A stretch of 61,818 nt of DNA, counting the filler, from Fonticula-like sp. SCN 57-25 (lineage: Eukaryota): NCBI GenBank assembly GCA_001724245.1. It is 4 parts of 4 records of this genome, joined end to end, with 100 filler letters (N's around TTAATTAATTAA, not from the genome) between each part and the next. Parts side by side here need not be neighbours in the genome. Positions count along the whole stretch, not along the records: positions 46,682 to 61,818 come from MEDX01000141.1; 3 more parts are not named here. The stretch is one strand, 5' to 3'. The position numbers and the translations under genes were made by a program. This document shows, piece after piece, positions 41,479-61,818 of the stretch (the first letter of the stretch is position 1; every line of letters begins with the position of its first letter). The notes under the pieces are model-generated. The model did no database searches. It was not told the origin of the DNA and saw only the letters and a program-made list of their open reading frames with translations.

Positions 41479-44400
41479 TTACTCCCGCGGAGGCATGCTG
41501 TTCGGCAGGAGGTACGAAATGTCGTCCCACGGGTGGCGGTAGAGGCCCTGCTTGAGCCGCTTCTGGTCCAAAAAGTGCGCCACGAAACCAATGCTGCGGC
41601 CGACAATGAAAAGGCCGTTCAGCACGCCAATCTCCGAGTATTCCTAGATGCACTCTGTCAGATTGCTAAAAATCAAAAGCATGCTGCGTACGTCCGCCTC
41701 CTCGCGCGAAAAGGCACCGCAATTGCGCATGAGGTCAACAAAACTGCACGCGATGGCGCCGTCCACGTTCAAGATGAGGTTCTCCTTCTTTGCGGTGGTA
41801 ATCTTTGCATCGCACGTTAGTATTGACTCACACAAGCACACTTTGGCCGCACCTTTTCCACCTCGAGGGCGTAGTCGAGGATCGGCGTGAGCGGAAAGTT
41901 CTTCTTGACAAAGTCCTTGATGATTGTGACGCGGAGGTCCGGGTTGTGCTTGCTCTTGATGCGGTGCCCGATGCCGTGGATGAGCTGGCCGCTCTTGCGC
42001 ATCTCCTCGACAAACTCGTGCGGCAGGAGCCCCTTGTCGTACGCCTGCGAAAACTGCGTGGCCGCGCCGTCGAGCGCACCTCCAAAGCGGTCGCCGATTG
42101 TGAGCAGCCCCGAGCACAGGGACGAGATGAGGTCCTTGCCCGCGCGCGCGGCCACGATGGTGTTGTGCGCGCCCGAGACGGCCGGGCCGTGGTCGGCCGT
42201 GAGCATGAGGATCATCTCGATGAACTTGCACGCGTAGTCGGGCAGGCGGCGCTTGAACCACAGCAGCGACACGACGCCGCCGATGCCAATGTTCTCCTTG
42301 AACACGGCCGAAATGGGCATGCCCGCGTAGAGCAGCTCCTGGCCGCGGTCGTCCACGATCGTCGACACAAAGTTGGCCGGCTTGCGCACGAGGCCAAGCT
42401 CCTGCGCCCACGAGTAGTCGATCGGGATCTTGGGCGTCTCAGGCTCCTCGCTGAGCACGATCGTGCCCTCCTGGACGAGGCGCTGGTAGACGTTCTCGAG
42501 CGCGGCGGGGAACTCTTCAAAGGTGGGGGGGACAATGGCGCCCGCGTTGCGCAGGCTCGCGTTCTTGTAGTCGGCCGTCTCCATGTCGCTGTTGGCGAGC
42601 GCGCCGGCGTGGCCAAACTGGACCTCTGTGGTGAACATCTTGGCGCACGTGCCGATGCACCACGCGACGAGCGGCTTGGTAATCACGCCGCTCTTGATGG
42701 CCTGCGCGATTTTCACCTCCTCGGTGCCACCCACCTCGCCGAGCAACACAATGAGCTTGCACTCGGGGTCCTTTTCAAAGCGCAGAATGTGGTCAAGGAA
42801 GGTGGTGCCGGGGTAGCGGTCGCCGCCAATCGCAATTCCCTATTTATCGGTCAGTACAATCAGTCAAATAAAAGTTAGCGCGCGCGTACCTCGTAGACGC
42901 CGTTCGTGTGGCGCGAAATGATATTGTTGAGCTCGTTGGACATGCCGCCCGACTTGGAGACGTACGCCACGCTTCCCGGGCGGTAGAGCTTCGAGTCGAT
43001 GATGTTGTCCATCATGCCGCCCGTGTTGCCGATCTTGAAGCAGCCGGGCTTGATGCCGCCGACGGTTGCCGGGCCGATAATGATCACGCCCTGCTCCTCG
43101 GCGCGCTGGACAATCTGCTTTGTGCGGCGCTCCGGGACGCCCTCGGCGATGATGGCGATCGAACGGATGGACGGGTACTGCAGCAAGTCCATCGTGCTCT
43201 CGTAGACGGAGCGGAACGACGCAAAGTTGACGACGTGGTCCACGGCGGGGAACTTGTTCACGGCATCAGCGACCTTGGTAAACACAGGGATGAGGATCTC
43301 CTGCGTGCCCCAGTAAAACTTTTGCACGTGGCCGCCGCCAAAGGGGTAGATCATGCCGGCGACGGACGGCACGGCGCGCTTGCACATAAAGTCAAAGTCG
43401 AGCATGCCCTGCACGGCGCGCGGCTGCATGCCATAGATGAACGCCTGCGATGTCTTTGAAAAGAGCGCGTAGCCACGCTCGTTCTTGCCGGCGGCGCCCT
43501 TGCCCTGCGCGGCCGCCTCCGCAGTGGGCTTCTCGGGCGGGTTCGTCTCGTCCTCGGGGTTGAGGTACTGGTAGCGCGCCTCGCTCGAGGTCGAGTAGCG
43601 GCGCTCGGTCTCGCTCATGGCCTCAAAGGACGTCACGCGCTTCATCTCCGAGATCTGGCCGAGCGCCATCGGCACAATAGCCGTGATGAACGTCTCCGGC
43701 CCATGCACGTGGATCGGGACGCCGAGCGACTCGCCGAGGGCGCGCATGGCGCGCAGGCCCTCCTGGTAGTTGGGCCCGCCGCGGCGGATCCAGATCTGCA
43801 CCTTGTGCGCGACGAGCTGGTGCTTGTACTGCGTCAAGGCGCGGATGATGCCCTTGAAGGTGGCGGCCACGTTGGTAAAGTTGGCGATGCCGCCGCCGAT
43901 GAGCAACACCTTGCCGTCGGGGTGTTGGTGGCGCGTCATCAGGTCGAGGATCGTCTTGGAGTACTCGTACGTCTGCTCCTCGTTGGGCGCGCCAGAGTAC
44001 TCGCCATAGTTGGCGAGCTCGCTCAGGAAGCCGTGCGCCGCGATGGCGTCGCTGTACACGACGGATGCACCGCCGCCCGCAACCATCGTCCAGATGCGGC
44101 CGCGCTCGTTGAGGATGGTGAGCTTGAGGGAGGCGCCCGTCTTGCTGTCAAGCTCGGCAATGTACGCCTCCTCGGGGTAGCTCGCGCGACCAAAGGGGCT
44201 GGGGAACTCGATCTTGCCCCAGTAGCGCGCGCACTCAAACTCGCTCGTCTGGTCAAGCTTGGCGGCAAGGTCGAGGTAGTAGACGTGCTCGCCGACGACC
44301 ACGAACGGGTTGATCTCGAGGTACGTAAAGTTGAGCTTGACATACACCTCGTAGAGCGCGAGCATAAAGCGGGCAATCAGATCGCGGCGCTCCGCCGGCG

Positions 44401-44929
44401 CCTTGACGAGCAGCTTCTTCTGAATGGTTTCAATGCTGAGCGTGTCGTTGGTCTGAACCGTGAAGCGCTCTGCCTTGGCATCCACATCGCCAATGTCCAC
44501 GCCGCCCTCGTGATAGAAAAAGATCTCGTCGCCGTTGCGGACGCTCTGGATGCACACGTAATACTCGTCCGAGGCGGCGTGCGGCACAAACGGCTCCACA
44601 ATGAAGCAGTTGAGGATGCCGCTGAGCGAAGCGACCACCGTCTCCTTGTTCATCCTCTCGTCGATCCACGCCTTGGCGTCGGCCCACGTCGCGTTGAGCA
44701 GGATCAGCCCGCTCTTTCCGCGGCGCTTGAGGAGCTGGTCGGGCTTGACCACAAGCTTTTCGGTAAGCAGCCAGGGGTGCGCGGCGACGAGCGCCTCAAT
44801 GTTCGACTGCGCATTCACTTGCACGACGCGCGCCGGCGGCATGAACGAGGCTGGCCGGCCATCGGCACCCGAGAGATGCCGAGCGAGCAGATTCTTTCCG
44901 TCAAACTCGCGGATCGCCTTCGCCGACAT
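41479..44929 (-). CDS. ACLY: ATP-citrate lyase, single-chain (animal-type fusion)
   Basis: [35 protein letters not shown] (phospho-His), ADHGPAVSG and [11 protein letters not shown]. Confidence 0.98.
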
Positions 44930-46581: not shown

Positions 46582-46681
46582 NNNNNNNNNNNNNNNNNNN
46601 NNNNNNNNNNNNNNNNNNNNNNNNNTTAATTAATTAANNNNNNNNNNNNNNNNNNNNNNNNNNNNNNNNNNNNNNNNNNNN
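46582..46681. other. Artificial contig spacer
   Basis: Same N/TTAATTAATTAA/N structure as 15678-15777. Confidence 0.97.
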
Positions 46682-46867
46682 ATGCCACGTGTCATTGAAG
46701 CATCGAAAGGAAGACTGACCGCGGCTGACGCAATCAAGTTTATCGGATTAGTTAGGAATATTAGAAGCGAAACGGATGGTGACAAGGCCACGTGGGTGGT
46801 GAAATGGAGTGGGGCGAATACGATTGACAATCAAGCTGCGCAACATGAGGGTGAGGATGATATCTGA
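46682..46867 (+). CDS. 3' end of a tandem-SAM family paralog (copy 1, truncated)
   Basis: PRVIEASKGRLTAADAIKFIGLVRNIRSETDGDKATWVVKWSG aligns with the C-termini of the copies at 58277 and 61130. Confidence 0.8.
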   Translation: MPRVIEASKGRLTAADAIKFIGLVRNIRSETDGDKATWVVKWSGANTIDNQAAQHEGEDDI

Positions 46868-47683
46868 ATAATGTACATGTGACATAAAATGTAGTAATGC
46901 AAATAAAACATGTCTTTAAATAATATAGTTTTTGGCCATTTATTACATACTTGAATGTGTTTTTGTTGCTTTGCTTCATATGTAACTGCTCATTGTTCTC
47001 TCACGAGCTAAGCCAAAAAAGCACAAAAATTGTCTACTTTAACAGCAACTTACCAGGAGGGTGTACAAGGAACCACTGACGGTAGTTGCCCAAACTAAGG
47101 TAAACTCAAAAAGTGCGAATATTAAAACAAAACACACATAAATGAAAAAGCAACAAAATATAGTATATAGTCTATTTGTTTTTGTTGTTGAATTCGCAAA
47201 ACTGAGCTCTCTACAGACAAATTAAATAAAAATACGATTTTTAAACCAATCAGAATCGTCGGATTGTTGAGCGCGCGAATCAGCATCGCGCGACAAAAAT
47301 GAAAATTTCTCGCTCATTAGCATACATAAAAGCATTGTTCAAACGCTTAATGCAATCATTATACACTACTTTACACCCTCTTTTAATTATTCATGTTTTA
47401 TTTAGGTCTACTTGGCGCTCACCAATGATCGACTCGAAGCGTGTCATTATGTCAGCCGTTATATGGTTGGGTAGCCAATTTTTTACCACCCACTCATCAA
47501 GGTAGATCAAACTGTTCTACCCAGTAACTTTGAGATTGTTTCATCCTTTTCAAGGTAGCAATTTATTACCACCCCACTATATATATGGTGTGCACCCCAC
47601 TTCAATTGATTCGTTATTTTTGAACCGTCCTGCGTATCATCGCCAGATCCCGCGTCGCACATCTAGACGCGCCTCTGCCAAGC

Positions 47684-49903
47684 ATGGAGGGGAGCTCGCC
47701 GACCAAGAAGCGCGTAAAGGTGCGCTTTCACTCCATTTTCCCTTGCCTTTCAACGCTCTGTGTTTTTGTAAACTGACGCGAACCTGTGATTGAATCCGCC
47801 TTTAGCATTCTGATCCGCCGTCCTCGTCGCCTCCCTCTAGTCCGTCCCCAGTCAAGCGGCCTCGCACAGTTCGTCTCTCTTTCTCATTTTCATATCCACT
47901 TTTGCTCACTTTTGCCCACTTGCGCTCTTTTTCTTTTCGTTGATCTACTTTGCCCGTCTTTAGCAACTTGCTGCTGATGGCACACCGACCACCAAGGTAC
48001 GCGGGGATCCCTCTTCACTCCCGAACCCCGTCCACATAGCTAACCTTTCTGTGTCCAGACTGCGCGCTCTCTCTTCCCTGACGAGTACGAATAATTGTCT
48101 TTGTTTTGGCGGGATGATGGCGGGATGGGCATCATGCCCAATGGGCTTGGTGATGATGGCGATGACCAGGGTGGGGATTCGTGTGCAAGAAGATGATGGC
48201 CGTGATGGCGAGACATCTTAATATTACGCACTTTTCCCTTTCTTTAATGTCCCTTTTCCTTTCTTTCTTTTTCCTTTCCCTCTCTCTTTCCCTTCCCACC
48301 CTAACTCGCCATCATCTTTCAGGAAACCGCCTCTTCCACCCTCCTCCCGCGCATCCTCCAGCCGCATCTCTCTGACGTCATCTCTGACGTCATCACCATC
48401 CGCACCACGTGGCCGTTCCCGCTCTCTTTCAAAGTCGTCCTCGGATGTGCCCATTTTGAATTTGACATCGGCTCAGGATGATGCCGCGTACGCACAATTG
48501 GGCAGGGATCGTGTGGGTGAAAGGGAAGCATTGGAATGAAAGAAAAGCGGAAAAAGGGAGAAAAGTGGGTAATTGGAACAGGAAAAGAGGGGAAAAGTGT
48601 TATAAAAGTGAAATAGAAAACTAGAGGGAATAGTCATGTATGTTGTACATTTGTGTTATGATACAGTGAATTCAATATGGGACCCATATTGAACATCATA
48701 TACAATCACTCTTTTTTTTCTTTCTTTTATGTATTTTTACTCACTTTTACTCTCTTTTCTTTCCTTTTACTCACTTTTTTCTCACTTTTACTCACTAATT
48801 CTCTTTCTATAAATAGCCCCGCACTTCCCGCGTCATTTCCCGCGCGCGCCCGCCACTTTCTTTCCTCCCCCCTCGTGCAGCGCTGGTGCCGCTTCGAGTT
48901 CTTCTACTCTCCTATTGACGCGGTTCTATTGAGGGAAAGTGAGTTTGCAGTTTGCTTATCTGAGGCTGGCCTCGAAAATGTACGTACATTTCTTTCTATA
49001 TATGATGATATTACTATATGGTGATAGTGGGAATGGTAATTGTGTGTGTAATGGTCAGTGTGTGAAATGTTCAGATATATGATGATCACGTGATACTGTC
49101 TTATTATTATCACGTGATAATTTCATTGATATCTCTCATGTGACCACACACACTTTCTTGTTTCCCTCCCTTGTGCCCACACTCTCATGTATCCATCTTA
49201 TGATGTGCATCACTCTCACGTGACCACATATCCATCATTCTCACGTGATCACACATACTTGTATCTCTTCATCACTCTCACGTGACCACATACAAACTTG
49301 TCTCTTATGTCTCTTATATCTCTTATATCTCTTATGTCTCTTATGTCTCTTATGTATCTTATCTTACTTATGTCTCTTATCTTACTTATGTCTCTTATAT
49401 CTCTTATGTCACTTTATTCACTCATTCACTCATTATTCCCTCATTATTCACCCTTTCTCTTTCCTTCCACTTTCACTCACTTTCACTTTCCCCTCCCCAT
49501 AGATTTCTTCCCTCTCCTTTGCCCAGTGGTCCTCCCTCCGCTCCCGCTGGCGCCCCCGCCGCTTCTCCCCCTCCTTCCTCTCCCTCGAGCGACGCCATCT
49601 AGAAGAACGACGCAGACGCATACGTCACGTGCAGTTCAATAATGGGTTTATGTCTGCGGGTGATCCCGATCAGGGGGTGAGTATTCCTGGGTGGGTGCCG
49701 ATCAAGTTTGTGGTGGGGGCGGGGGTGACCGTTAGAGACAAGAAAGAGTACGTGAAGGAATGAGTGGGTTATATATGATGAGATATTGTATGATATATTG
49801 TATGATGTATGGTGTATGATGTATGGTATTGTGTATGGTATTGTATCTATCTGTCTATCAATGATACTGCTCTATGTATCTGTGTATCTATCAGTGTATA
49901 CAC

Positions 49904-49935
<32 letters not shown>

Positions 49936-52900
49936 ATATCTATCTATCTATCAGTGTATCAGTGTATCAGTATTTATATTCTATCTATCTATCTATCTAT
50001 CAGTGTATACATACACTCTATCTATCAGTGCATCAGTCTATCTATCAGTGATATCTATCTATCTATCTATACACTCTATCAGTCTATACACTCTATCTAT
50101 CATACTACTCTATCTATACATATACTCTATCTATACCCACTCTATACCATGATTACCACACTTTCTCTCTCTCTTCCCATACTAACCCTTCCCTTTTTCC
50201 TCTCTTCCCATATTAACCCATTCCACTTATTCTTCAATAGATCTTCCTCTGGCTTTAGTGTCGGTACTGTTATCGCCTCAGACACCCTCGCAGGCATATA
50301 TAGAGTACAACTCGCATCTGGCGGCGCAATAAAGTCATTCCGTGACTATGATATGATGGTACATATGATCACGTGATGATATGATGACACATGCTAATTA
50401 TGATGATTGTAGCCTGAAGTGCCAGAGGAGCTGATGGCGGTGATGCCGGCGGATAGTAGGGCGATGTCGGCGGCGTATGCGGCATTCGGGCATCACGTGA
50501 CGGTGCGTGGAAGGAGAAGTGGAAAGTGGGGGGATCTTGTGATCTGATGTGCATCATCTGATGGGTGATGTGATGTGTGATGTGATGTGTGATGTCAGAT
50601 GAGTGATGTTGAGTGTATCATGTGATCATATGGTCATGTGATCATATGAGTGTATTGTTCATGTGTGTGTGTGATCGTGTGTGTGATCATGTGTGTGATC
50701 ATGTGTGTGATCGTGTGAGTGATCATGTGTGTGATCATGTAGGGTGGTATCATGTGTATAGTGGATCACTCATGTGGTCATGTGATACAAGGTCATGTGA
50801 TTAATTGGTCATGTGATCATATGAGTGTATTATTCATTCATTCATGTGTGTGATCATGTGCATCATTCACTCATGGATCATGTGTGTCATCTTGATGCTG
50901 ATGGTGATGTGATGCAGGATCAGCCGTCCATGTTGCTTCATCACCCTGCTCGTCCCCCGCCAGCCACAGTCACCACAAGCATGAATGTCAAGTCTACTTC
51001 TACTTCAGCATCAGGATCGACATCGACATCAGCATCAGCATCGACATCGGCATCGGCATCGACATCGGCATCAGGATCAGGATCGACATCAGGATTCCGC
51101 ATCTCATCAGCCATAATATCACGTGACCATGAAGATGTTGCTGCGACTGCTGCGGCAGGTGGCGTGCTTGCGCTGACAGCCAATAGGAGTGGAGATCAGA
51201 GTGTGACGTCATCACCGCAGGGGAATGCGCGTAGTCGGATTGCGTCAATGATGCAGGATGCTGCCCGTACGCGCATTTGGGCAGAGGAAAGTGGGGATTA
51301 TGGTCACGTGATGGAAGTGACATGTGAATATTGTGTGTCTACATGGTGTATGTATCACGTGATGCTGTGCATCATGTGATAGAGTACAGTGTATATAGAG
51401 GGAAAGTATGGGTATTAGCACTGTGTGCATCACGTGACACACATAGTGACATACATCATCACGTGATCATATGCACTACGCTTTCACTCTTCTCTCACTC
51501 TTCTTCTCTCATTCTTCTTCTTTCCTTCTTCACCTCTAACCACGTGACCACTCAATATGGTGAAAATAGCAGCCTTCCATTCCACTCTTACTTCACTCGA
51601 CCCCCCCCTTCTACCCCGTCCCGAAATAGTATCAAGTATATCTGCACTAACAAAGTTGGTGCGCGTAAAGCAGTTTCTGATTGATCAGCTGCAAAAGTTG
51701 AATGATGAGGCAGAGTCAGCGGTGCGAGTTGGGGGTGGAATCAGGGGTGGATTATTGGGAAAGTATGGGAAATAGAGGGAAATAGAGGTAGAGTATATGA
51801 ATGTATGTATGTATATGAGTGTATGTATGATTGATGTATGTATGAGTATATGTAGTATCATTGTATGTGTATGTATGTGTGTATGTATGTATGTATGTGT
51901 ATGTATGTATGTATGTGTGTATATGATTGTATATGATAGTGTGCGTATGATAGTTTATGTATGTATGTATGATTAAATATGATTGTATATGATTGTATGT
52001 ATGTATGAGTATCATTGTATGTATGTATATATGATAGTGTATGTATGTATGTATGTGTATGATTGTATGTGTATGTATGATGTGTATATGATTGTATGTG
52101 TGTATGTATACAATGTATATGTGCTTATACTGTACAGTGTTTATCTTGATATTTCCAATAGGTCTATTACATATCATTACCGTAATCATTACCGTAATGA
52201 CTACCTTTCATTATTATCTCATTCTCCTCCTAATTACTGACCAATCTCAGGCCTCCTCGCAATCCACCGCCCAATGGGAATGGTCCACGTCATTCCGCAT
52301 GCAATACGCATACGCAGTCATGCTACTTGATTACGTCAACCGACACATTCCACATGGCATGTCTGTCGTTGATAGGTCACTGAAATTCCTATTGGAGGAA
52401 GATGGCACTGGAGGGGCAGGGACTGAGGATGATGATGATGGCCACGTGGATGGTGGGTATTCAGTGAAGGAGATGGCTGAAAAGATATTTGATGACGTCA
52501 TGCGTCGTGGTGCTAGTTCCATGGTGGTACGCAGACGAAGGGTTTATATGTGGGAAGAATGGGGAAGAGTGGGGGAAGAGTGAACATGAGTCAATATGGG
52601 AGGGTGAGAGTGAATATAACAAGTGTGTGTATGAGTGTATATGAGTGTATATTGGAGTGAGTATGAGTGTATATGGGTGTATATGGGATATGAGTGTGTA
52701 TGAGAGTGAGTAGTGTAGAGTGAACATGAGTGAACATGAGTGTGTATATGAGTGTATGTATGAGTGTATATATGAGTGTGAGTATGAGTGTACATGAATG
52801 AGTAGTGTATATGAGTGTGTATATGTCTATGAGTATGAGTGTATGAGTATTAGTGTGTATGAGTGTGTATATGACTGAGTATGAGTGTGTGTATGGGTGA

Positions 52901-53934
52901 GTAGTGTATATGAGTGTAACAGTGTATATTGTGCATATGAGTGACTGTAAGTGTACATGAGTGAGTGTATATATGAGTGTATGTATGATTGTATATGACT
53001 TTACATGAGTGTATATACATCTCTATCACCCCATACACTATTCTACTTTCCCTTCTCTTTCCCTTCTCTCCCTTATCTCTTCTAATTCCCTTCTATTCTC
53101 ACCCCTTTCCCTCTACACCAATAGGAACCCGCCCACCTCCTCGCCCAAGTCCGCCAAAAACAAGGTGACGCAGCCACTGCACTAACACTACTCGCATCTC
53201 CACTCCCATTGGTCAATTCATCATCTATGACGTCATCATCATCTTCTGCTAATATGACGTCATCATCTTCTACTTCTGCTAATATGACGTCATCAACTGT
53301 TAATATGGCGTCGTCGTCGTTGGCACAGAGTCCGACGGATGCGTCATTGGAACAGGCGATTGCAGTGTCACGTGACCGCACGTATAGGTTGATTGGGTCG
53401 TGTATTGCGTTGTTGATTGCTTTGAAAGAGGGAAAGTCAAGGGTGGAGTCTGGGGTGGATATGGGTAATATTGGTAATATGGGTAACATTGGTAATATGG
53501 GTAGTATGGGTGGTGATACGAGTACTAGTACTATTGGTCAATCTACTACTACTACTACTACTAGTGGAAATGTCACTGGTAATGTTGGTAATGTTACCGG
53601 TAATCTTGGTAATGATACCAGTATTGTTACCAATGTTGGTAATGAAACTACTACTAGTGCTCCCACTGGTGAAAATGACACTTTTACCACATCCACAACA
53701 ACATCTTCCGGAACCATATCTTCCGGAACCACATCTTCCGGAACATCCCTTTCCTATCTCTTTAACCCCCCCTCTTCCTCTTCTCCCATTGGTCCCCTTG
53801 AATCCTACCTATCTGCTATTCGCCCTCCTATTGGAAGTGCCAATGCTGGCCTATATAGGGAAGTGGAGGCGCAGGTGGAGCATATTGCGAGGACGATGAG
53901 GGGGGCGAGTTTGCCGGGATTTCTTGCTGTTTAG
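47684..53934 (+). CDS. LIN9: LIN9/ALWAYS EARLY homolog (DIRP + Tudor-like; MuvB/DREAM core), long repeat-filled introns
   Basis: DIRP RWCRFEFFYSPID..L..SEF..CL (48816-48979), WSSLRSRWRPRRFSPSFLSLERRHL (49504+), Tudor-like GIYRVQL...DYDMM and KLVRVKQFLIDQLQKLNDEAE. Exact exon set tentative. Confidence 0.82.
49298..49410 (+). repeat. Intronic 9-bp tandem repeat (TCTTATGTC-like)
   Basis: Directly visible. Confidence 0.9.
49835..50140 (+). repeat. Intronic degenerate (TCTA)n microsatellite
   Basis: Directly visible. Confidence 0.9.
50560..50915 (+). repeat. Intronic TGTGA/GATCATGTGT low-complexity repeat
   Basis: Recurrent GTGATCATGTGT units. Confidence 0.85.
51795..52120 (+). repeat. Intronic degenerate (TGTA)n microsatellite
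   Basis: Directly visible. Confidence 0.9.
52575..53015 (+). repeat. Intronic degenerate (TATGAGTG)-type repeat
   Basis: Directly visible. Confidence 0.85.
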
Positions 53935-54400
53935 GGTTGAAAGAAGGGAAAGAGAGTGTAAAAGATAATAAAGAAAGAAAGAAAGAAAGAAGAACAAGTA
54001 GAAAGGGAATATGAAGTAGTAGTATGTAGTAGATGATACTGTAGATGATACTGTAGTAGATGATACTGTAGAGATGACACTGTAGTATGTAGTATGTTGT
54101 GTGTAGTTTGTTGTTGTAGTATGGGTACATGGATCATTATTATGTACAATCATATCAGAGCATATCAGTGTATGTATGACAGTGTCGCTGTATGGATGAA
54201 AAGTGATGATAGTGGAAGAGTGCAAATTGGATTCAGTTTGCATCAATTACAGCTACATTCACCCACGTGGCCATGAATGTGCTCCATCTACTCACAATTA
54301 ACTCTTCCAATTGAACTCTTCCTATTGAACTCTTCCTATTGAACCAAACATGTACAAACAGCTCTAAATGATCACCTCAATCTCCACCCCCAACTCCACC

Positions 54401-55349
54401 CTAGATTCCACTCCCGACTCCACCCTCTCGCAGCGCAATATGCATAAAGTTGTCTGGGTAGCTGAGGTGATCCGCCAGCCACGTGATCGGCGCATCGAGT
54501 GGCGGGCTGACGCCATGCAGAAGAAGGCGCGATCGACCTGCGGGCATCAGCATTTAAATCAACCACGTGGCCAATGTCGTACCTTCGAGAATGTTGTCCA
54601 CGTGGGCAGGAACAGTTTTCTTGATGAGATCGAGGAGGGTGGTGTCGCGGCCGGATGCGGCATCGAGTGGCGGCACGAGATCCTGCTCGTAGGATCCGTC
54701 GTCAAAGTAGATGCGGAAGGGGACGGCGCGGCAGTCGCTCGTGTTGCCGACGGACATTGTGGTGTTTACGGCGAAAAAGCGGTCGTGATTGCGCTGCTGA
54801 AGGCCCTGCCAGAGCTGGACGGAATCGACCTTGCTCAGATTCATGACTTTTTTGGTCGAGCCGTTTTTGACGGCATCGGCTTGCTTGAGCATCTGCATGA
54901 AGAGGACTTGGACAGTGTCGTCAGAGGGGCAGCGCTGAAGCGTGTCGGAAGGGAAGGATTTAAAGTGGGCGGTGAGATGCCAGGGGAGGCCGACGAGGGG
55001 ATCGCAGTGCAGATCAAAGAGAAGGCCAATGGGGAGATGCCAGCGAAGAGGGATCGCGGCGGAGGAGGAAGAAGAAGAGCATGAAAGCCAGAATTCGTCG
55101 TCGGGATGAGACGCGACAAAGGGAGAAAAGTGGTCAATCATGGCGCGCCATTGAAGCGGCAGGTACGTCGTCCGATCAAGCATCGCCTGATTCATTGAAT
55201 CACGTCAGTGGGCAATGACAAAATAGAAGTGTGCGCACGTAAAAGGGCTCGGGGGAGGACCCGCCCTGCTGGTCAGAGGGCGCCAGGCGAACAGTTACCG
55301 GGATCTTGCCCTGCCATACGGCCTTGGTGGCCTGCTTGTTCACCGTCAT
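54401..55349 (-). CDS. ATG5: Autophagy protein 5
   Basis: VWQGKIP, PLRWHLPIGLLFD, LPWHLTAHF, LKQADAVKNG, VPFRIY and HGVSPPLDAPITWL..HLSYPDNFMHI. Confidence 0.95.
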
Positions 55350-55884
55350 CGCCGCCGCCGCCGACGCGCACAAACAGGGACGAGGGAATTGACCAATGGC
55401 AGGCGAGAGAGGGCAATTTTGGACCAATCAGGAGAATTGGACGTTTAATTCGCGAAATGGCAAATTTGCAAGCTCGGCTCGACCAATCAAATCGCTTATC
55501 GGAGCGCTAATCGGCCAGTCATAATGCGGGAAAATTCTCAAAACATAAAAATTTTTACCCACAAGAGAAAGCAAAATTATAACAGTAAAAACGGATTCAG
55601 CGTCATTTACTCTACCTCCTACATACATAGATTATTACCTTTCCCTTCCTTAAAAGCGTGCCACCCTCCAATAGTTCAACCCCAGACTCCACTCCAGATG
55701 ATCCTGATGACCATCACCATCCTGATGACCATCACACGCACCAATCAGGTCATTGTTGCCAATTCATCCACCAATCAAATCGCTCCAAATTCCTCATTCC
55801 ACCGACGGTTCCGGTCAGAGCGGCGCCCATTCTCCTTGCTACGTGTCGACATCCCCACAGGATTGCCCGACATTTGCCTCAGCA

Positions 55885-57727
55885 ATGATGCCTCGATGGG
55901 TTCCCAGTAGCGTGGGCGCTCTCTCTGTTGCGCTTCTTCTATGCGCCGCTTCGGTCGGCGTCTCTGCCGACGCCCAATGTCATATTGATATGGCGTGCGC
56001 CGAGATTTATGCCCCGGTCTGCGGCAGTGATGGCGTGACGTATTCGAATGCCTGCGAGTTTAACCGCGCGTCCGTGTGCGGTCTCAATGGCGGATTGACC
56101 TCTACCGATGGCGAATGTGCTCGCAACTGTACGTACATTTTTTCTTGCTCTTTTTTGATATGAAATCAACTGACCATGACGATTTCCAGTCGAGTGCCCT
56201 GCCATGTGCCCTCTCATGTATGCCCCCATGTGCGGCTCTGATGGCAACACCTACGGCAATCTCTGCGCGCTCATCTCTTCCCGCTGCGCCGCCTCGCGCA
56301 ACGGCGCCTCCCTCCACGATCTCGTGCGCGTCAAGCATGCCGGCGAGTGCGGCGCCATCATGTGCCCGTCCGCCTTTGATCCCGTCTGCGCCGACAATGG
56401 CGAGACGTTTTCCAACGAATGCGAGATGACGCGCGCGGCACGTGACCGCGGCCTTTCCCTCAAGGTGGCGCGCAAGGGCGAGTGCGCCATCGCCGATGAC
56501 GATGCCGACGAGTGCGAGACCATGTGCACCGACATGATCGACCCCGTGTGCGGCACCAACGGCGTCACTTACATGAACGAGTGCAAACTGCAAACTGAGA
56601 GGTGCCGTGAGCGTTCTGCCTTTTTGAAGGTTGCCTTCAAGGGCGCGTGCAAGGGTACGAATCTGGGGTGGATTACTGGGATCTTGTAGTGGGAATGTAT
56701 ATTGGATATTGGTTATGTGTATGGCGTAGATGGGCGTTAATGTGTTATTATGGTCATATTGGCATTTAATGAGTCAGCATATATTATCGTTTAAATATGA
56801 ACTTTTGTCATCATGTTCTGTTATATCATATCATATCATGTCATATCATGTCATATCATATCATATCATATCATATCATGTCATATGTCATATCATTATT
56901 TATCTCTTATTTCCTTCTCTTTTCCTTCTATTACCTTCCATTGACTTCCTCTTCCCTTCTAACTCTTTCCTTTAGAAATGTGCGACTCTGCCTGCCTTGC
57001 CTCCTACACCCCCCTCTGCGCCTCAACTGGCCGCACTTTCTCTTCCCTATGCGATTTCATCCAATCAACACTCTGCAACAACGATGACGTCAGCAACGAC
57101 GATGACGTCAGCCACATTGACGTCATCACCCCTGTGATTGTCTCGTCTGGCGAGTGTCCTTTTGACGGCCCCATCACGATCGACCCTATTGGCCCGATTG
57201 AGCAGGACGACACTCCGATTGGTCCGATTGACCCGGCCACGTGTCCGACCAAGTGTGACAAGTCGCTTCGTCCTATTTGCGGCACTGATGGCAAGACGTA
57301 CCCTAATGAGTGCCTGCTTTCCCTGTTGGTCTGCCGCGGACGCACGACGGCCACAAAGAAGCATGACGGCCCGTGTGACGTCACGAGTGACGATGATGAC
57401 GTCAGTGATGACGACACTGATCCTTGTGCTGTTGTCATGTGCCCTATGAACAGTGTGTGTGTGCCTGAGCGCCAGGAATGTTTCGCGCCGCCGTGCGATC
57501 AGTTCAAGTGCGTGCCATTGGCTGACGATGTTGTCGTGGCGGACGCTGAGGGCGAGGCGACCAATGAAAGTGGCCCGAGTGCGGACGATGTCGTCATGTG
57601 GGCGCTCGTGGCTGCGGGTGTGGTTGGGTTCGTGGCGGCGGTGGGCGTGATCGCGATCAGGGCGAGGGGTGCGAGATCGGCTGATGCGGCGGGTGCTGAG
57701 CCGCTGCTCGCCGAGTCAAGTGCTTGA
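55885..57727 (+). CDS. Type I membrane protein with six Kazal-type domains and a follistatin-N-like module
   Basis: Signal peptide, six PVCGxDGxTYxNxC-type units, DPCAVVMCPMNSVC, a TM segment VVMWALVAAGVVGFVAAVGVIAI and a short tail. Three exons. Confidence 0.88.
56815..56895 (+). repeat. Intronic (TCATA)n microsatellite
   Basis: Directly visible. Confidence 0.9.
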
Positions 57728-58276
57728 GGTGTGCAAACTGGATTGAGTTTGCGGGTTTGGTTTAAGATCATGCGGGATCTGATCTTGGGATCTGGTCCTG
57801 GATCGCATCCCGGATCGTGATCTGAATCTGAACGCAAATTGGGTTTAGGTTTGTGACTGTGTGCAAACTGATTTTTTAGTTTGCGTATTTTATTTGCAGT
57901 GTGCAAACTGATTGTGAGTTTGCATTCATAGTTCTTTTTTCCTTTGTAGTTTAGCAAACGCGCCTCTTTTCTTTGTTTTTTCAGTGTCGATCCCCGCGGG
58001 CCCGATCGAGGCGGCGATCTCTTCAGTGATTTGCCGCGGTTTATTTGTTGTTGTTTGTTGAGTGTTTTAGTGTGGGATTTGTAGGCGGGGCTGATGCTGA
58101 TCGCCTCTTTTTATTGTGGGTGCGGGATGGCGATGCTGGTTATGGCGATCGTTGTCTGATCTTAATATACCCTTTTCAAAAGTAATCTATCTATTAATTG
58201 AACATGTCCAGAACAGATAACATGCAGATAATACGCATGATTAGTGATTTATTCAATATAAAATATAGGCATAAAA

Positions 58277-60401
58277 TTATGTACCTATACTGTATTCATC
58301 ATACCAGTATGGCCATACTAGTAAGCCTGATTGATTCCCAATGCAAATTGATCCCGTCCACGTGGTCACCCACGGGTCCTTGTCGCCATCTGTTTCTCTT
58401 CTAAGTGCCTTTACAAGTCCAATGAACTTTACCGCATCGGGTATCTTGAGTGCTCCATTGGATGCTTCAATGACACGTGGCACTGACAGAGAACATAAGG
58501 CGGCACCATGCCAGCCAATAGAGGAAAGTGAAGAGTAAGGAGCATTAAGTGTCTTGATCCAGTTTGCAGTTTGCCATTTGTCCCATGCCAATAAACTGCC
58601 ACGTGGCGGGGTAAATGCTCTGTCATCACTCGGCTTGTAGTGTGCAATGTAGCCACGAAGTTGAAGTGCGGCGGCATCATTGAAGGTGACGTCATCGTTA
58701 ATGTCAATCACGTGTTCAACATTGAGCATTGTCAATGTGTTGCCATCAATGCCTTTCAATGTAGTTTGCAGTTTGCACATGCCAATGTCACATAGCCATT
58801 CCTTGAAGGCTTCACCACGCAAATCCTCCAATCCGGACACAGATAGGCAATCTGTCAAGCTGTCAAGTGTCTGCGTGCAAACATGAATGATGCCAAGTAG
58901 TTCATTATGGCGCTCCATCAGCTTAGTCAAATCACGTGATTGTGCAATATACTCGGGAGTTTGCATTTCCTCTAGTGTCTTTTTCACACTCGCCACTAAC
59001 ATATTGTGTTGGTATATAATAGACAATCATATGTGCGTACATTGGGCCTCGAGGTCGGCAATTGAGCGCTTCAGTTTTAACTCACGTGAAATTTTCTGAC
59101 GTAATCCACTGTCTGCCTTTTCAAGCGATGCTTGAATATGCTTCACTTGTGTCTGCGCCTCGGCCAGTCGCTCGCGGACGCATTCATGGGAGGGCACGTG
59201 ACCAAGAGGATCAAATAGCCACATTTCAACTTGACCATCACCAAGAGCAACTGCGATGTTGCCAGACGCAGCGTGATAGGACAATGACATCACCTATATA
59301 ACAAGGGTGAGCGATATAAATGGACAAAGCGTGACACACCATTCCACCACATTGATAGTTTGCAGTTTGCACTCCATCAGAGGTGCGCCAAATAAGGAGG
59401 GATTTATCTCCCGACCCAGTGATCACGTGCGACTCGTCACCGAGAAAGGCGCCACCACTGACATATTCCGTATGTCCCTTGAGTGTCACGTGGGGAGTGG
59501 ATGACCACGTGGCATTGGATGGAACATTCCAGATGGAAGAAGTCATGTCTTGACTTGTGACCAATAGCATGCGGCCAGAGGGACTGAAGCAGAGTGAAGT
59601 GATCTAGTAATAATTAGCAATGTGAACATATAGGCAACTATCATACTTGATAAGAATGATGCTCGTTATCTGATACTTGCGCCCACTTGCCATTGGTCAG
59701 TCCATAAATGTACACGTGGCCATCATGACATCCCGCGGCAAGAAGATTTCCATCGGGTGAAAATGCGAGAGAATTCACCTGCATGAACTATTGTGAGCAA
59801 CTGCAAATAGTCATTGAATAACGTACAAGAACAGCCAATCCAGTTAAGAATGTTTGAATGACTGAATAGTTGTTGGACGGGTCCAAGAGTGTCACTGCTT
59901 TATCAAATCCACCGATGGCAAGGATCCCACTGGGACTGAACGCGCATCCAGCCAACTAGACAAAAGATGAGCAACGAAGGAGCGGCAAACATGACGCGTA
60001 CACGCTCGTTGATCTTGTACACGGTCGAGTGCGCATTGTTGTTAGTGACTTGGATGACAACGCCATCATTTGTCACGGCGACAAGACGCGTCCCATCGGG
60101 CGACCACGCGACATCATGCACCTTGATGGGGCGTCAGAACAAACAAGGGCAGGTGGGCGTTAGGAACGTACCCAACTACCGCACTTCACAGTGTACACTT
60201 TTGCCTGCGTGGCAATACTGGTGATGCAGAGTGTATAGTCCCAACTGCCAGTTGCAAGCAAAGTGCCGTCGGAGGAAATCGCACACGCGCACACCTGCAA
60301 ACACAATCAGCATCAGACCAGCAGCACATCAAAAGCAAAGAATGACGTACGTTACTCGTGTGCGGTTTACTAGCCGCTTTCTTGACCAGTTGATGCGCCA
60401 T
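58277..60401 (-). CDS. WD40 (7 blades) - coiled coil - SAM - SAM protein (copy 2, complete, 8 exons)
   Basis: WD motifs AISSDGTLLATGSWD, VAWSPDG, AFSPSG, LAFSPDG, LCFSPSG and LKGHTEYV..TGSGDKSLLIW, then a heptad region. SAM-like EWLCDIGM..IDGNTL and LAWDKWQTANWIKTL..GAALCSL follow. Confidence 0.8.
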
Positions 60402-61129
60402 TGCGTCCACCACTCTTGACTCTTCTACACTCGCTAGTCCGCTTTGCGCTCGGCAGACGCAGATGCAGATGGGCAAAGAGCAGACACTCCGTCACACTCG
60501 TCGTGCTGCTGCAAAGTCGGCCACGTGGTGATGACATTTACATGTCACGTGATTTGAGCTCGGAGAGCAACCCGCCATGATCCCGGGATTCTGTCGCGTC
60601 GATCGCCTCTGCGAGCATGCGACGGCCATTGTGCGCCCACTCGCGCCCACATGTTCAATCAAGCACCGCTCGTTGTTTTCCGCGCACAAATGACATCATC
60701 TTTGATTCGATACGTTGGACGTGGCCGGCATCGCGAGATGATCGGCGATGCCATCGCAAGCGCCATGCCGCGGATGGTCCGCTCGTGATCGCAGTCGCGC
60801 GCGGCATCACCAAGACCCGCACACGGAATGACCAATTGACCGTCATCAGACGCCGTCACCAAAGTGGCATGGACGGCAGACGGGTGGCTTTCGATGTTCT
60901 TTCGGTGAGGGGCAGCATGTACATGGTGCAAATAGTAATCGATAAACACCACTGGAATATTCATGTATTATGGGCAGTGAGAGGAAAAGAAAAGATGTAA
61001 TTTGAAAGAAAGAGGAAACTGAAAAGGCAAAAGTCACGTGATCATCTGCAGAGAAAACGAAAGAGAAAACAGACCACAAGATACAGTACGCTACACCTGG
61101 TAAGGAGTATGGCAGGAATGGATACCATA

Positions 61130-61794
61130 CTAAGCCTGATTCCCAATAGGAATTGATCCCGTCCACGTGGTCACCCACGGTTCCTTTTCGCCGTCCGTTT
61201 CTCTTCTCAGTGCCTTGACAAGTCCAATGAACTTTACCGCATCGGGTATCTTGAGTGCTCCCTTGGATGCTTCAATGACACGTGGCGGCGAAAGTGAACA
61301 TAGTGCAGGGCCATGCCAACCAATAGAGGAAAGAGAAGAGTATGGAGCATTAAGAGAAGCAATCCAGTTTGCAGTTTGCTCGTCAGTCCATGACAATACA
61401 CTGTCACGTGGCGGGGCAAATGCGCTGTCATCACTTAGCTTGTAGTGCGCAATATAACCAGACAGCTGAAGAGCAGCAGCATCGTTGAATGACACACCAT
61501 TCTCCATCACGTGTTCAACGTGGAGCATTGTCAATGTGTTGCCATCAAAGCCTTTCAATGCAGTTTGCAGTTTGCCCATTCCAATGTCACAGAGCCATTC
61601 GTTAAAGGCGTCCCCACGAAGGTCCTCCAATCCAGAAACAGCAAGGCAGTCTGTCAAGCTGTCAAGTGTCTGCGTGCAAACATGAATAATGCCAAGCAGT
61701 TCATTGTGGCGCTCAATCTTCTTGGTCAAATCACGTGATTCTGCAATATACTCGGGAGTTTGCAGTTCCTCAAGTGCCTTTCTCTCGCTCGCCA
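61130..61794 (-). CDS. Last exon (coiled coil + SAM-SAM) of family copy 3; 5' part beyond window
   Basis: Highly similar to 58277-58995 and preceded by an acceptor at the same position and phase (TAG|TG GCG). Confidence 0.82.
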
Positions 61795-61818
61795 CTATGA
61801 CATATTAGTACTATACTG

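Follow-up and report, generated by a model that had tools for sequence, protein, structure and literature searches.

The window considered here, the whole stretch of 61,818 nucleotides that was analyzed, consists of four contigs with N spacers between them, and the genes in question lie on the last of these, contig C141 (positions 46682 to 61818; 15,137 bp). As claimed in the original prediction, this contig carries three paralogous C-termini, located at 46682 to 46867 on the plus strand and at 58277 to 58995 and 61130 to 61794 on the minus strand. The complete family gene occupies 58277 to 60401 on the minus strand, and its eight exons (60401-60351, 60294-60172, 60121-60002, 59955-59827, 59778-59647, 59603-59340, 59293-59041, and 58995-58277) encode a 597-amino-acid protein with seven WD40 repeats, a coiled coil, and two consecutive SAM domains. 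The exons are spliced into one open frame across seven GT-AG introns of 43 to 56 nt, every one of which has a counterpart at its position in 42 to 47 paralogous models. The spliced frame, Pfam matches, the alignment of paralogues, and an AlphaFold2 model all agree with the architecture anticipated for this copy, namely, a seven-blade WD40 propeller leading into a coiled coil and then a pair of SAM folds.

The propeller (residues 1 to 301; 59210 to 60401, minus strand) is supported by Pfam, by alignment, and by the codon models described below. Its blade starts coincide with the sites of six phase-0 introns, with blades 5 and 6 sharing one exon. Pfam WD40 matches at an E value of ≤0.001 were obtained for exons 2, 5, and 6, i.e., three of the six propeller exons tested, while the seven-repeat pattern was read from the sequence and is kept across 39 paralogues. 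The coiled-coil region (approximately residues 313 to 411; 58835 to 59176, minus strand) is interrupted by a phase-1 intron at 59040 to 58996; its exon-8 part forms one long helix in the AlphaFold2 model and matches coiled coils in structure alignment, and its exon-7 part (approximately residues 313 to 357) comes from sequence reading only. SAM domain 1 (residues 417 to 478; 58634 to 58819) and SAM domain 2 (residues 490 to 562; 58382 to 58600), both on the minus strand, were delimited by structure alignment of the model. The gene ends about 35 residues past SAM2, with no C-terminal U-box; ARM and TIR domains are absent from the gene model, as is a NACHT domain, the other domains accounting for all 597 amino acids. 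The coiled coil and the two SAM domains had been described as a single exon entered at a common phase-1 acceptor. Copies 2 and 3 do share this acceptor, and the intron is present in 44 gene models, but the coiled coil already starts in exon 7, and only the second half of it falls in the last exon.

The sequence at 61130 to 61794 (minus strand) is the last exon of the upstream tandem copy, with 220 amino acids that are 83% identical to the complete copy and propeller exons that fall off the contig; it is preceded by the 3′ remnant of the phase-1 intron with its AG acceptor (61795 to 61818, minus strand), which is cut by the contig end. The third copy is represented at 46682 to 46867 (plus strand) by its C-terminal 61 codons (60% identity by tblastn). 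Contig C297 carries three copies in tandem, the last of which is a full gene with a WD40 head, and the fragment forms the tail of this gene, since the end of C297 and the start of C141 overlap by 99 identical bases and are bridged by the metagenome contig L090. Beside the WD40 gene, one or more Kazal-repeat proteins are encoded at 55888 to 57727 (plus strand), with an apparent N-terminal signal and an apparent C-terminal membrane segment. The third spacer contains a 12-base AT-only linker inside the N-run (46626 to 46637), which is an assembly artifact and not biology.

The genome searched, which is possibly incomplete, comprises 749 contigs with a total of 9.5 Mb. In a tree of ATP-citrate lyase (one gene, quick search; 45 rows chosen from 120 listed matches), the organism is sister to fungi with an SH-aLRT of 94, which suggests a deep-branching opisthokont, with low confidence as to its exact place. 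Chitin synthase was not matched in the genome, which is uninformative given its incompleteness.

Fold of the C-terminal region

The last exon was modeled with AlphaFold2 from an alignment of 47 last-exon rows. The resulting model (pLDDT 93.7, pTM 0.83) consists of a 41-residue helix followed by two helical domains, and structure alignment bears out the proposal that the region adopts two SAM folds. In VIA-align, SAM1 superposes on the tankyrase SAM 5jti_A (Z 6.1, rmsd 1.3 Å, 61 residues) and SAM2 on the SAM chain 3bs5_B of the CNK2/Hyphen complex (Z 6.8, rmsd 1.9 Å, 71 residues), and the best match to the whole pair is liprin-beta (PDB 3tad; Z 7.2, rmsd 4.9 Å, 136 residues). These Z-scores are modest. 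The best sequence match was also to the SAM domains of liprin-beta (E 4e-5), in a profile search that is independent of the model, liprins being proteins that carry three SAM domains. The weak tail of a representative sequence search consisted mostly of SAM proteins. In Pfam, neither SAM domain of the window copies reached the cutoff (best E 0.08), Foldseek returned zero matches for the last exon at an E value of ≤0.001, and no usable match to it was found in the ESM Atlas. The SAM assignment is thus based on the predicted model, on VIA-align, and on the profile match to liprin-beta.

An analogy with SARM1 had also been drawn. The top Foldseek rows are indeed the tandem SAMs of SARM1, at a nonsignificant E value of 0.04, and both proteins have consecutive SAMs (PDB 6o0s and 6qwv for SARM1). 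However, only one SARM1 SAM can be superposed at a time (71 residues), the rmsd over the pair being about 11 Å, the SAM-SAM geometry appears to differ from that of the SARM1 tandem, which forms an octameric ring, and the window family has neither ARM nor TIR. The analogy is therefore weak. Liprin-beta likewise resembles the family in its consecutive SAMs, and liprins differ from it in having no WD40 domain.

An expanded family with a diversifying propeller

The family is expanded, as had been proposed. A tblastn search of the assembly with the last exon gave 67 matching places in 9.5 Mb, 59 of them at an identity of at least 42% and 8 at 26 to 33%. Three pairs of matches are halves of single genes, separated by one frameshift and by two 99-base contig overlaps, and therefore the genome holds about 56 loci, mostly in tandem. 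Sixty places were modeled with a custom spliced aligner, of which 39 gave intact full-length models; the other 21 were dropped because of contig-end cuts, divergence, or breakage, and a frameshift or stop was found in 6 of the 60. Among the 55 well-scoring models, 38 lie on the same retrieved locus as another copy, and median tail identity among paralogues is 68%. The family takes up 102 kb of the 9.5 Mb assembly, or about 1%. Metagenome assemblies contributed 30 loci, 10 of which match copies of the genome almost exactly along much of their sequence; all ten outside relatives whose source was looked up belong to environmental assemblies. The remaining 20 loci, which include one further tandem array, do not match in this way, and the true family is therefore probably larger than the genome count.

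The N-terminal sensor, described as variable in the original prediction, is within the expanded clade always the same seven-blade WD40 propeller, which varies by substitution. A WD40 head was present on every copy for which upstream sequence was available, which rules out domain-swapped heads inside the clade, and other head types occur only on distant single-copy relatives. Shuffling of blades between positions is ruled out as well, since all of the blades (273 of 273) have the corresponding blade of another gene as their best match; there was no sign of concerted evolution or exchange of WD repeats of the kind known in the HNWD genes. Two loci look like double-propeller fusions: in C61 (L053:4096-7514, minus strand), a propeller and half a coiled coil run in frame into the first exon of the next copy, and a similar arrangement in C661 (L050:1050-4696, minus strand) has N at the junction. 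Third-position GC in the family coding sequence is 54%, against 89% in ATP-citrate lyase (window positions 42878 to 44929) and 68 to 74% in ATG5 and two of the U-box relatives described below.

Selection was analyzed with codon site models (custom code, region-specific trees) on 31 genes, i.e., the 39 intact models minus 8 long-branch ones. For the propeller, the comparison of M8 with M8a gave a 2dlnL of 620, with an omega of 3.9 at 13% of 293 sites, while the same comparison for the tail gave 2.3, which is not significant. Two other tests of the tail are nominally significant (M7 versus M8, 19.9; M1a versus M2a, 12.5), and its mean omega of 0.28 to 0.39 by region indicates moderate constraint only. 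All strongly selected sites lie inside the propeller. The WD and tail trees reject each other (2,000 replicates, flagged as too few), and the test was therefore repeated on per-exon trees: the six propeller-bearing segments were all significant, with values of 62 to 173, and the three last-exon segments gave 0, 4.1, and 1.0. None of the null simulations (n = 4, two with mixed trees) exceeded 7.0, and an omega of 3.9 was regained in the single positive simulation. The codon models thus bear out the notion of a family that diversifies at the top face of its WD40 domain and conserves its tail. Purifying selection is not uniform along the gene, there are about 56 loci, the tail models as SAM folds, and the family does not map to a known housekeeping orthogroup; the original prediction is thus partly supported.

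The selected sites follow a known pattern. In fungal HET-E, as far as the accessible text of PMC1805685 goes, selection acts on codons 7, 9, 25, and 27 of the repeat, which lie on the top face of the propeller. When this spacing was placed on the seven blades after the selected sites were known, anchored at blade starts and with blade 3 shifted by one, 24 of the 28 HET-E-equivalent positions proved to be selected, versus 12 of the 265 others. At these 28 sites all 39 genes differ from each other, with a median pairwise identity of 18%. Two metagenome paralogues from outside the model set behave in the same way: compared with its nearest genome copy, one has amino acid changes at 30 of 37 hot codons and at 35 of 263 other WD codons, and the second has them at 26 of 36 hot codons versus 34 of 259 others. 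Allelic hypervariability was not detected in eight near-identical contig pairs, where hot codons were no more variable than others (3 amino acid changes in 124 hot codons). The differences between such pairs are grouped in tracts, mostly in the last exon, and could reflect recombinants or misassemblies, since stretches of up to 92 bases are identical between paralogues; these differences were therefore left out of the evidence. Six metagenome contigs (L075, L078, L084, L085, L086, and L099) are identical to a genome copy over 0.7 to 2.2 kb and then switch abruptly to another paralogue within the last exons, L075 connecting gene 1 to gene 2 of C175; these too are either recombinants or misassemblies.

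U-box proteins carrying the same SAM pair

A Pfam search for the U-box gave three matches in the genome, on C31, C169, and C26, a count that is a lower bound given an incomplete genome and an exon-by-exon search, and all three lie on proteins that bear the family SAM pair. C31 encodes a WD40-coiled coil-SAM-SAM-U-box protein that aligns to residues 12 to 574 of the window protein (E 3e-54, 29% identity). The gene has three introns, which coincide with family positions 99, approximately 186, and 358 and agree with them in phase. The model of C31 is confident over the SAM pair and weaker over the U-box, for which U-boxes of plants and of CHIP head the fold matches, all of them at E values above 0.001. 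C169 encodes SAM-SAM-U-box, with no head seen. C26 (L104:2814-4601, plus strand) joins a macrodomain, a divergent SAM pair, a proline-rich linker, and a U-box in one open frame; its SAM region scored an E value of 0.002 with a family-only profile and 9e-13 with a wider one, and the protein is possibly a ubiquitin ligase that reads ADP-ribose. SAM identity between the family and these U-box relatives is about 25 to 35%. When longer relatives of the U-box member were sought, the only match was one unrelated kinase-U-box protein.

The SAM pair also occurs in other single-copy genes, most of whose heads were read from open frames and not from full gene models. WD40 heads were seen on C66, C36, C5, C112, C391, and C39, and a longer propeller-like region on C174; on C209, no clear head was seen. 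In C37 (L064:5198-7272, plus strand), a multipass membrane region, to which Pfam and the ESM Atlas gave no matches, is joined to the SAM pair via a proline-rich linker and one predicted intron. In a quick tree of 51 rows, the expanded genes form one clade (97) that includes four outside proteins, and the U-box members all fall outside it, the deep branches being unresolved. Elsewhere in the genome, two related genes, C523 (L121) and C693 (L122), encode a C-terminal TIR domain behind a region that looks Roc-COR-like by eye, without Pfam support. NACHT matches number three, all outside family genes, and C124 (L123:2395-4965, minus strand) appears to combine an F-box, a NACHT-like ATPase, and TPR repeats in one nephrocystin-3-like gene.

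Given the U-boxes on the family SAM pair and a relative, C31, that aligns over the whole length and shares three introns, the expanded clade is best read as a putative ligase-less branch of a WDSUB1-like E3 family. WDSUB1 had been set aside in the original prediction, too quickly in our opinion, since a homologous WD40-coiled coil-SAM-SAM-U-box gene is present in the same genome. The common layout is seven WD40 repeats, then SAM, then U-box, the last being found in C31. However, animal WDSUB1 has one SAM, whereas the window family has two and a long coiled coil, and the expanded clade consists of dozens of positively selected copies without a U-box as opposed to one conserved gene. Sequence searches with the family did not return WDSUB1, and the likeness is one of domain layout. 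According to PMC3087547, whose data date from 2010 and whose accessible text we rely on, WD40-SAM-U-box proteins are found in animals only, and Monosiga has a gene with two SAMs and a U-box, the same arrangement as in C169, which has no WD40 domain.

Proposed recognition by the propeller and its possible coupling to U-box relatives

We propose that the family is a lineage-specific repertoire of cytosolic recognition proteins, a ligase-less branch of WDSUB1-like genes that possibly feeds its U-box relatives via SAM contacts, a reading to which we give a probability of roughly 0.45. The genome contains about 56 loci, most of them intact and many in tandem, and by statistical test the propeller top face diversifies while the coiled coil and SAM pair are under purifying selection. 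Each copy would have its own ligand, one that changes over time, and the likeliest ligands are viral proteins or those of parasites living inside the cell; that the propellers bind changing foreign proteins is, judging from the pattern of selection, probable. The U-box sits on the same SAM pair in three single-copy relatives and may be ancestral, having been lost prior to the expansion, although repeated gain is the alternative. Ligand-bound copies would then cluster via coiled coil and SAMs and recruit a U-box relative, whereupon the target would be ubiquitinated and destroyed, in the way that nematode F-box and MATH-BTB adaptors work for cullin ligases. Even granting the binding of foreign proteins, this last step is rather tentative. 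A prediction of the complex between the window last exon and the coiled coil-SAM-SAM part of C31, made without alignments, gave a median of 0.27 against the mark of 0.34, a value that speaks neither for nor against such a contact. What is said here of SAM polymerization and of U-box function is general background; for this family, polymerization and an immune or allorecognition role are matters that we infer. Carried further, the proposal describes a cullin-free modular E3 system, in which a small number of U-box hubs would receive, via the tandem SAM, more than 50 catalytically empty, positively selected WD40 sensors, and the hub with the macrodomain could read ADP-ribose; in this extended form we hold it to be doubtful.

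The main rival does without a ligase altogether. The proteins may be stand-alone restriction factors, trapping foreign protein in a SAM-driven homo-oligomer, or decoys that soak up parasite effectors, in the decoy version those aimed at the U-box relative. The selection signal fits this equally well, and the U-box is missing from the entire expanded clade. The moderate constraint on the tail and its median identity of 68% among paralogues weigh against the adaptor reading, as does the SAM identity to the U-box relatives, which is low for a common docking surface and also speaks for the trap or decoy. A tail that remains under purifying selection after loss of the catalytic domain, on the other hand, fits a retained partner at least equally, and we regard the stand-alone explanation as a minority possibility. 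Lower still ranks the view that the pattern of selection, which would be equally expected from the parasite side, marks the proteins as effectors with which a parasite binds variable proteins of its host. Parasites do occur among the lineages near the fungal base, but in exon 1, which encodes only 17 residues, most of them polar, sequence reading revealed neither a signal peptide nor a membrane segment, and such a role seems improbable. We are equally skeptical of a SARM1-like sensor, whose tandem-SAM ring would activate a separate signaling enzyme, for example a TIR protein. SARM1 heads the nonsignificant Foldseek rows and the genome has two TIR genes, yet liprin-beta is the better whole-pair match, and profile searches found no such SAM pair in the DNA around both TIR genes.

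Allorecognition or kin discrimination, in which the propellers would read polymorphic self proteins after contact or fusion as in Podospora het-d/het-e, draws on the HET-E spacing of the selected positions and on a position of the organism next to fungi in the ATP-citrate lyase tree (one gene, quick search). Against it, the genes have no NACHT or HET domain, the blades show no concerted evolution, variation lies among paralogues and is not evident among near-identical copies, and a multicellular or fusing stage is not known for the organism; we consider it unlikely. A neutral process of gene birth and death, in which the loops were under relaxed constraint, could account for the broken models, and the conflict between WD and tail trees suggests recombination, which can inflate codon tests. 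An omega of about 4 at structurally specific positions, which holds with per-exon trees and against null simulations with mixed trees, nevertheless largely refutes this reading and leaves it very improbable.

Among known systems, the HNWD genes HET-D and HET-E of Podospora anserina are likewise a multigene family with a WD40 sensor positively selected at two position pairs per repeat, which the accessible text of PMC1805685 places in the d-a loop and the b-c turn with a spacing of 2-16-2. The window family differs in lacking NACHT and HET, in its fixed seven blades split by introns, and in showing no concerted evolution or change of repeat number within the propeller; it is like the HNWD propellers in its mode of diversification but is not an NLR. 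The F-box and MATH-BTB adaptors of Caenorhabditis, according to a summary in PMC4334554, expanded by gene birth and death, and positive selection in them affects the domain that binds the substrate and not the docking domain. By our codon models the window family shares this division, with a variable putative substrate domain and a conserved putative docking domain, although its docking module would be coiled coil-SAM-SAM and its partner a homologous U-box protein instead of a cullin. The brown-algal ROCO-LRR candidate immune genes, in the accessible text of PMC11378527, also encode each repeat in an exon of its own and are selected at the face that binds, but their exons shuffle, whereas the blades of the window family keep their positions.

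A description of a WD40-coiled coil-SAM-SAM family was not found in the mostly open-access literature searched. The family is real and strongly selected, with an architecture for which those searches gave no description and a proposed function. The residues under selection parallel those of HET-E in fungi, while the accompanying domains are different, and this suggests that the WD40 top face has been used convergently in an arms race. Compared with the restriction to animals in the accessible text of PMC3087547 (2010 data), the U-box relatives place the WD40-SAM-U-box layout outside animals. Their presence in the same genome also makes the vague idea of a sensor testable. To our knowledge, little is known of how unicellular opisthokonts recognize parasites. 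If the proposal is true in its extended form, the family would represent cell-autonomous immunity with an adaptor repertoire, built from one self-assembling protein family, in a unicellular relative of fungi.
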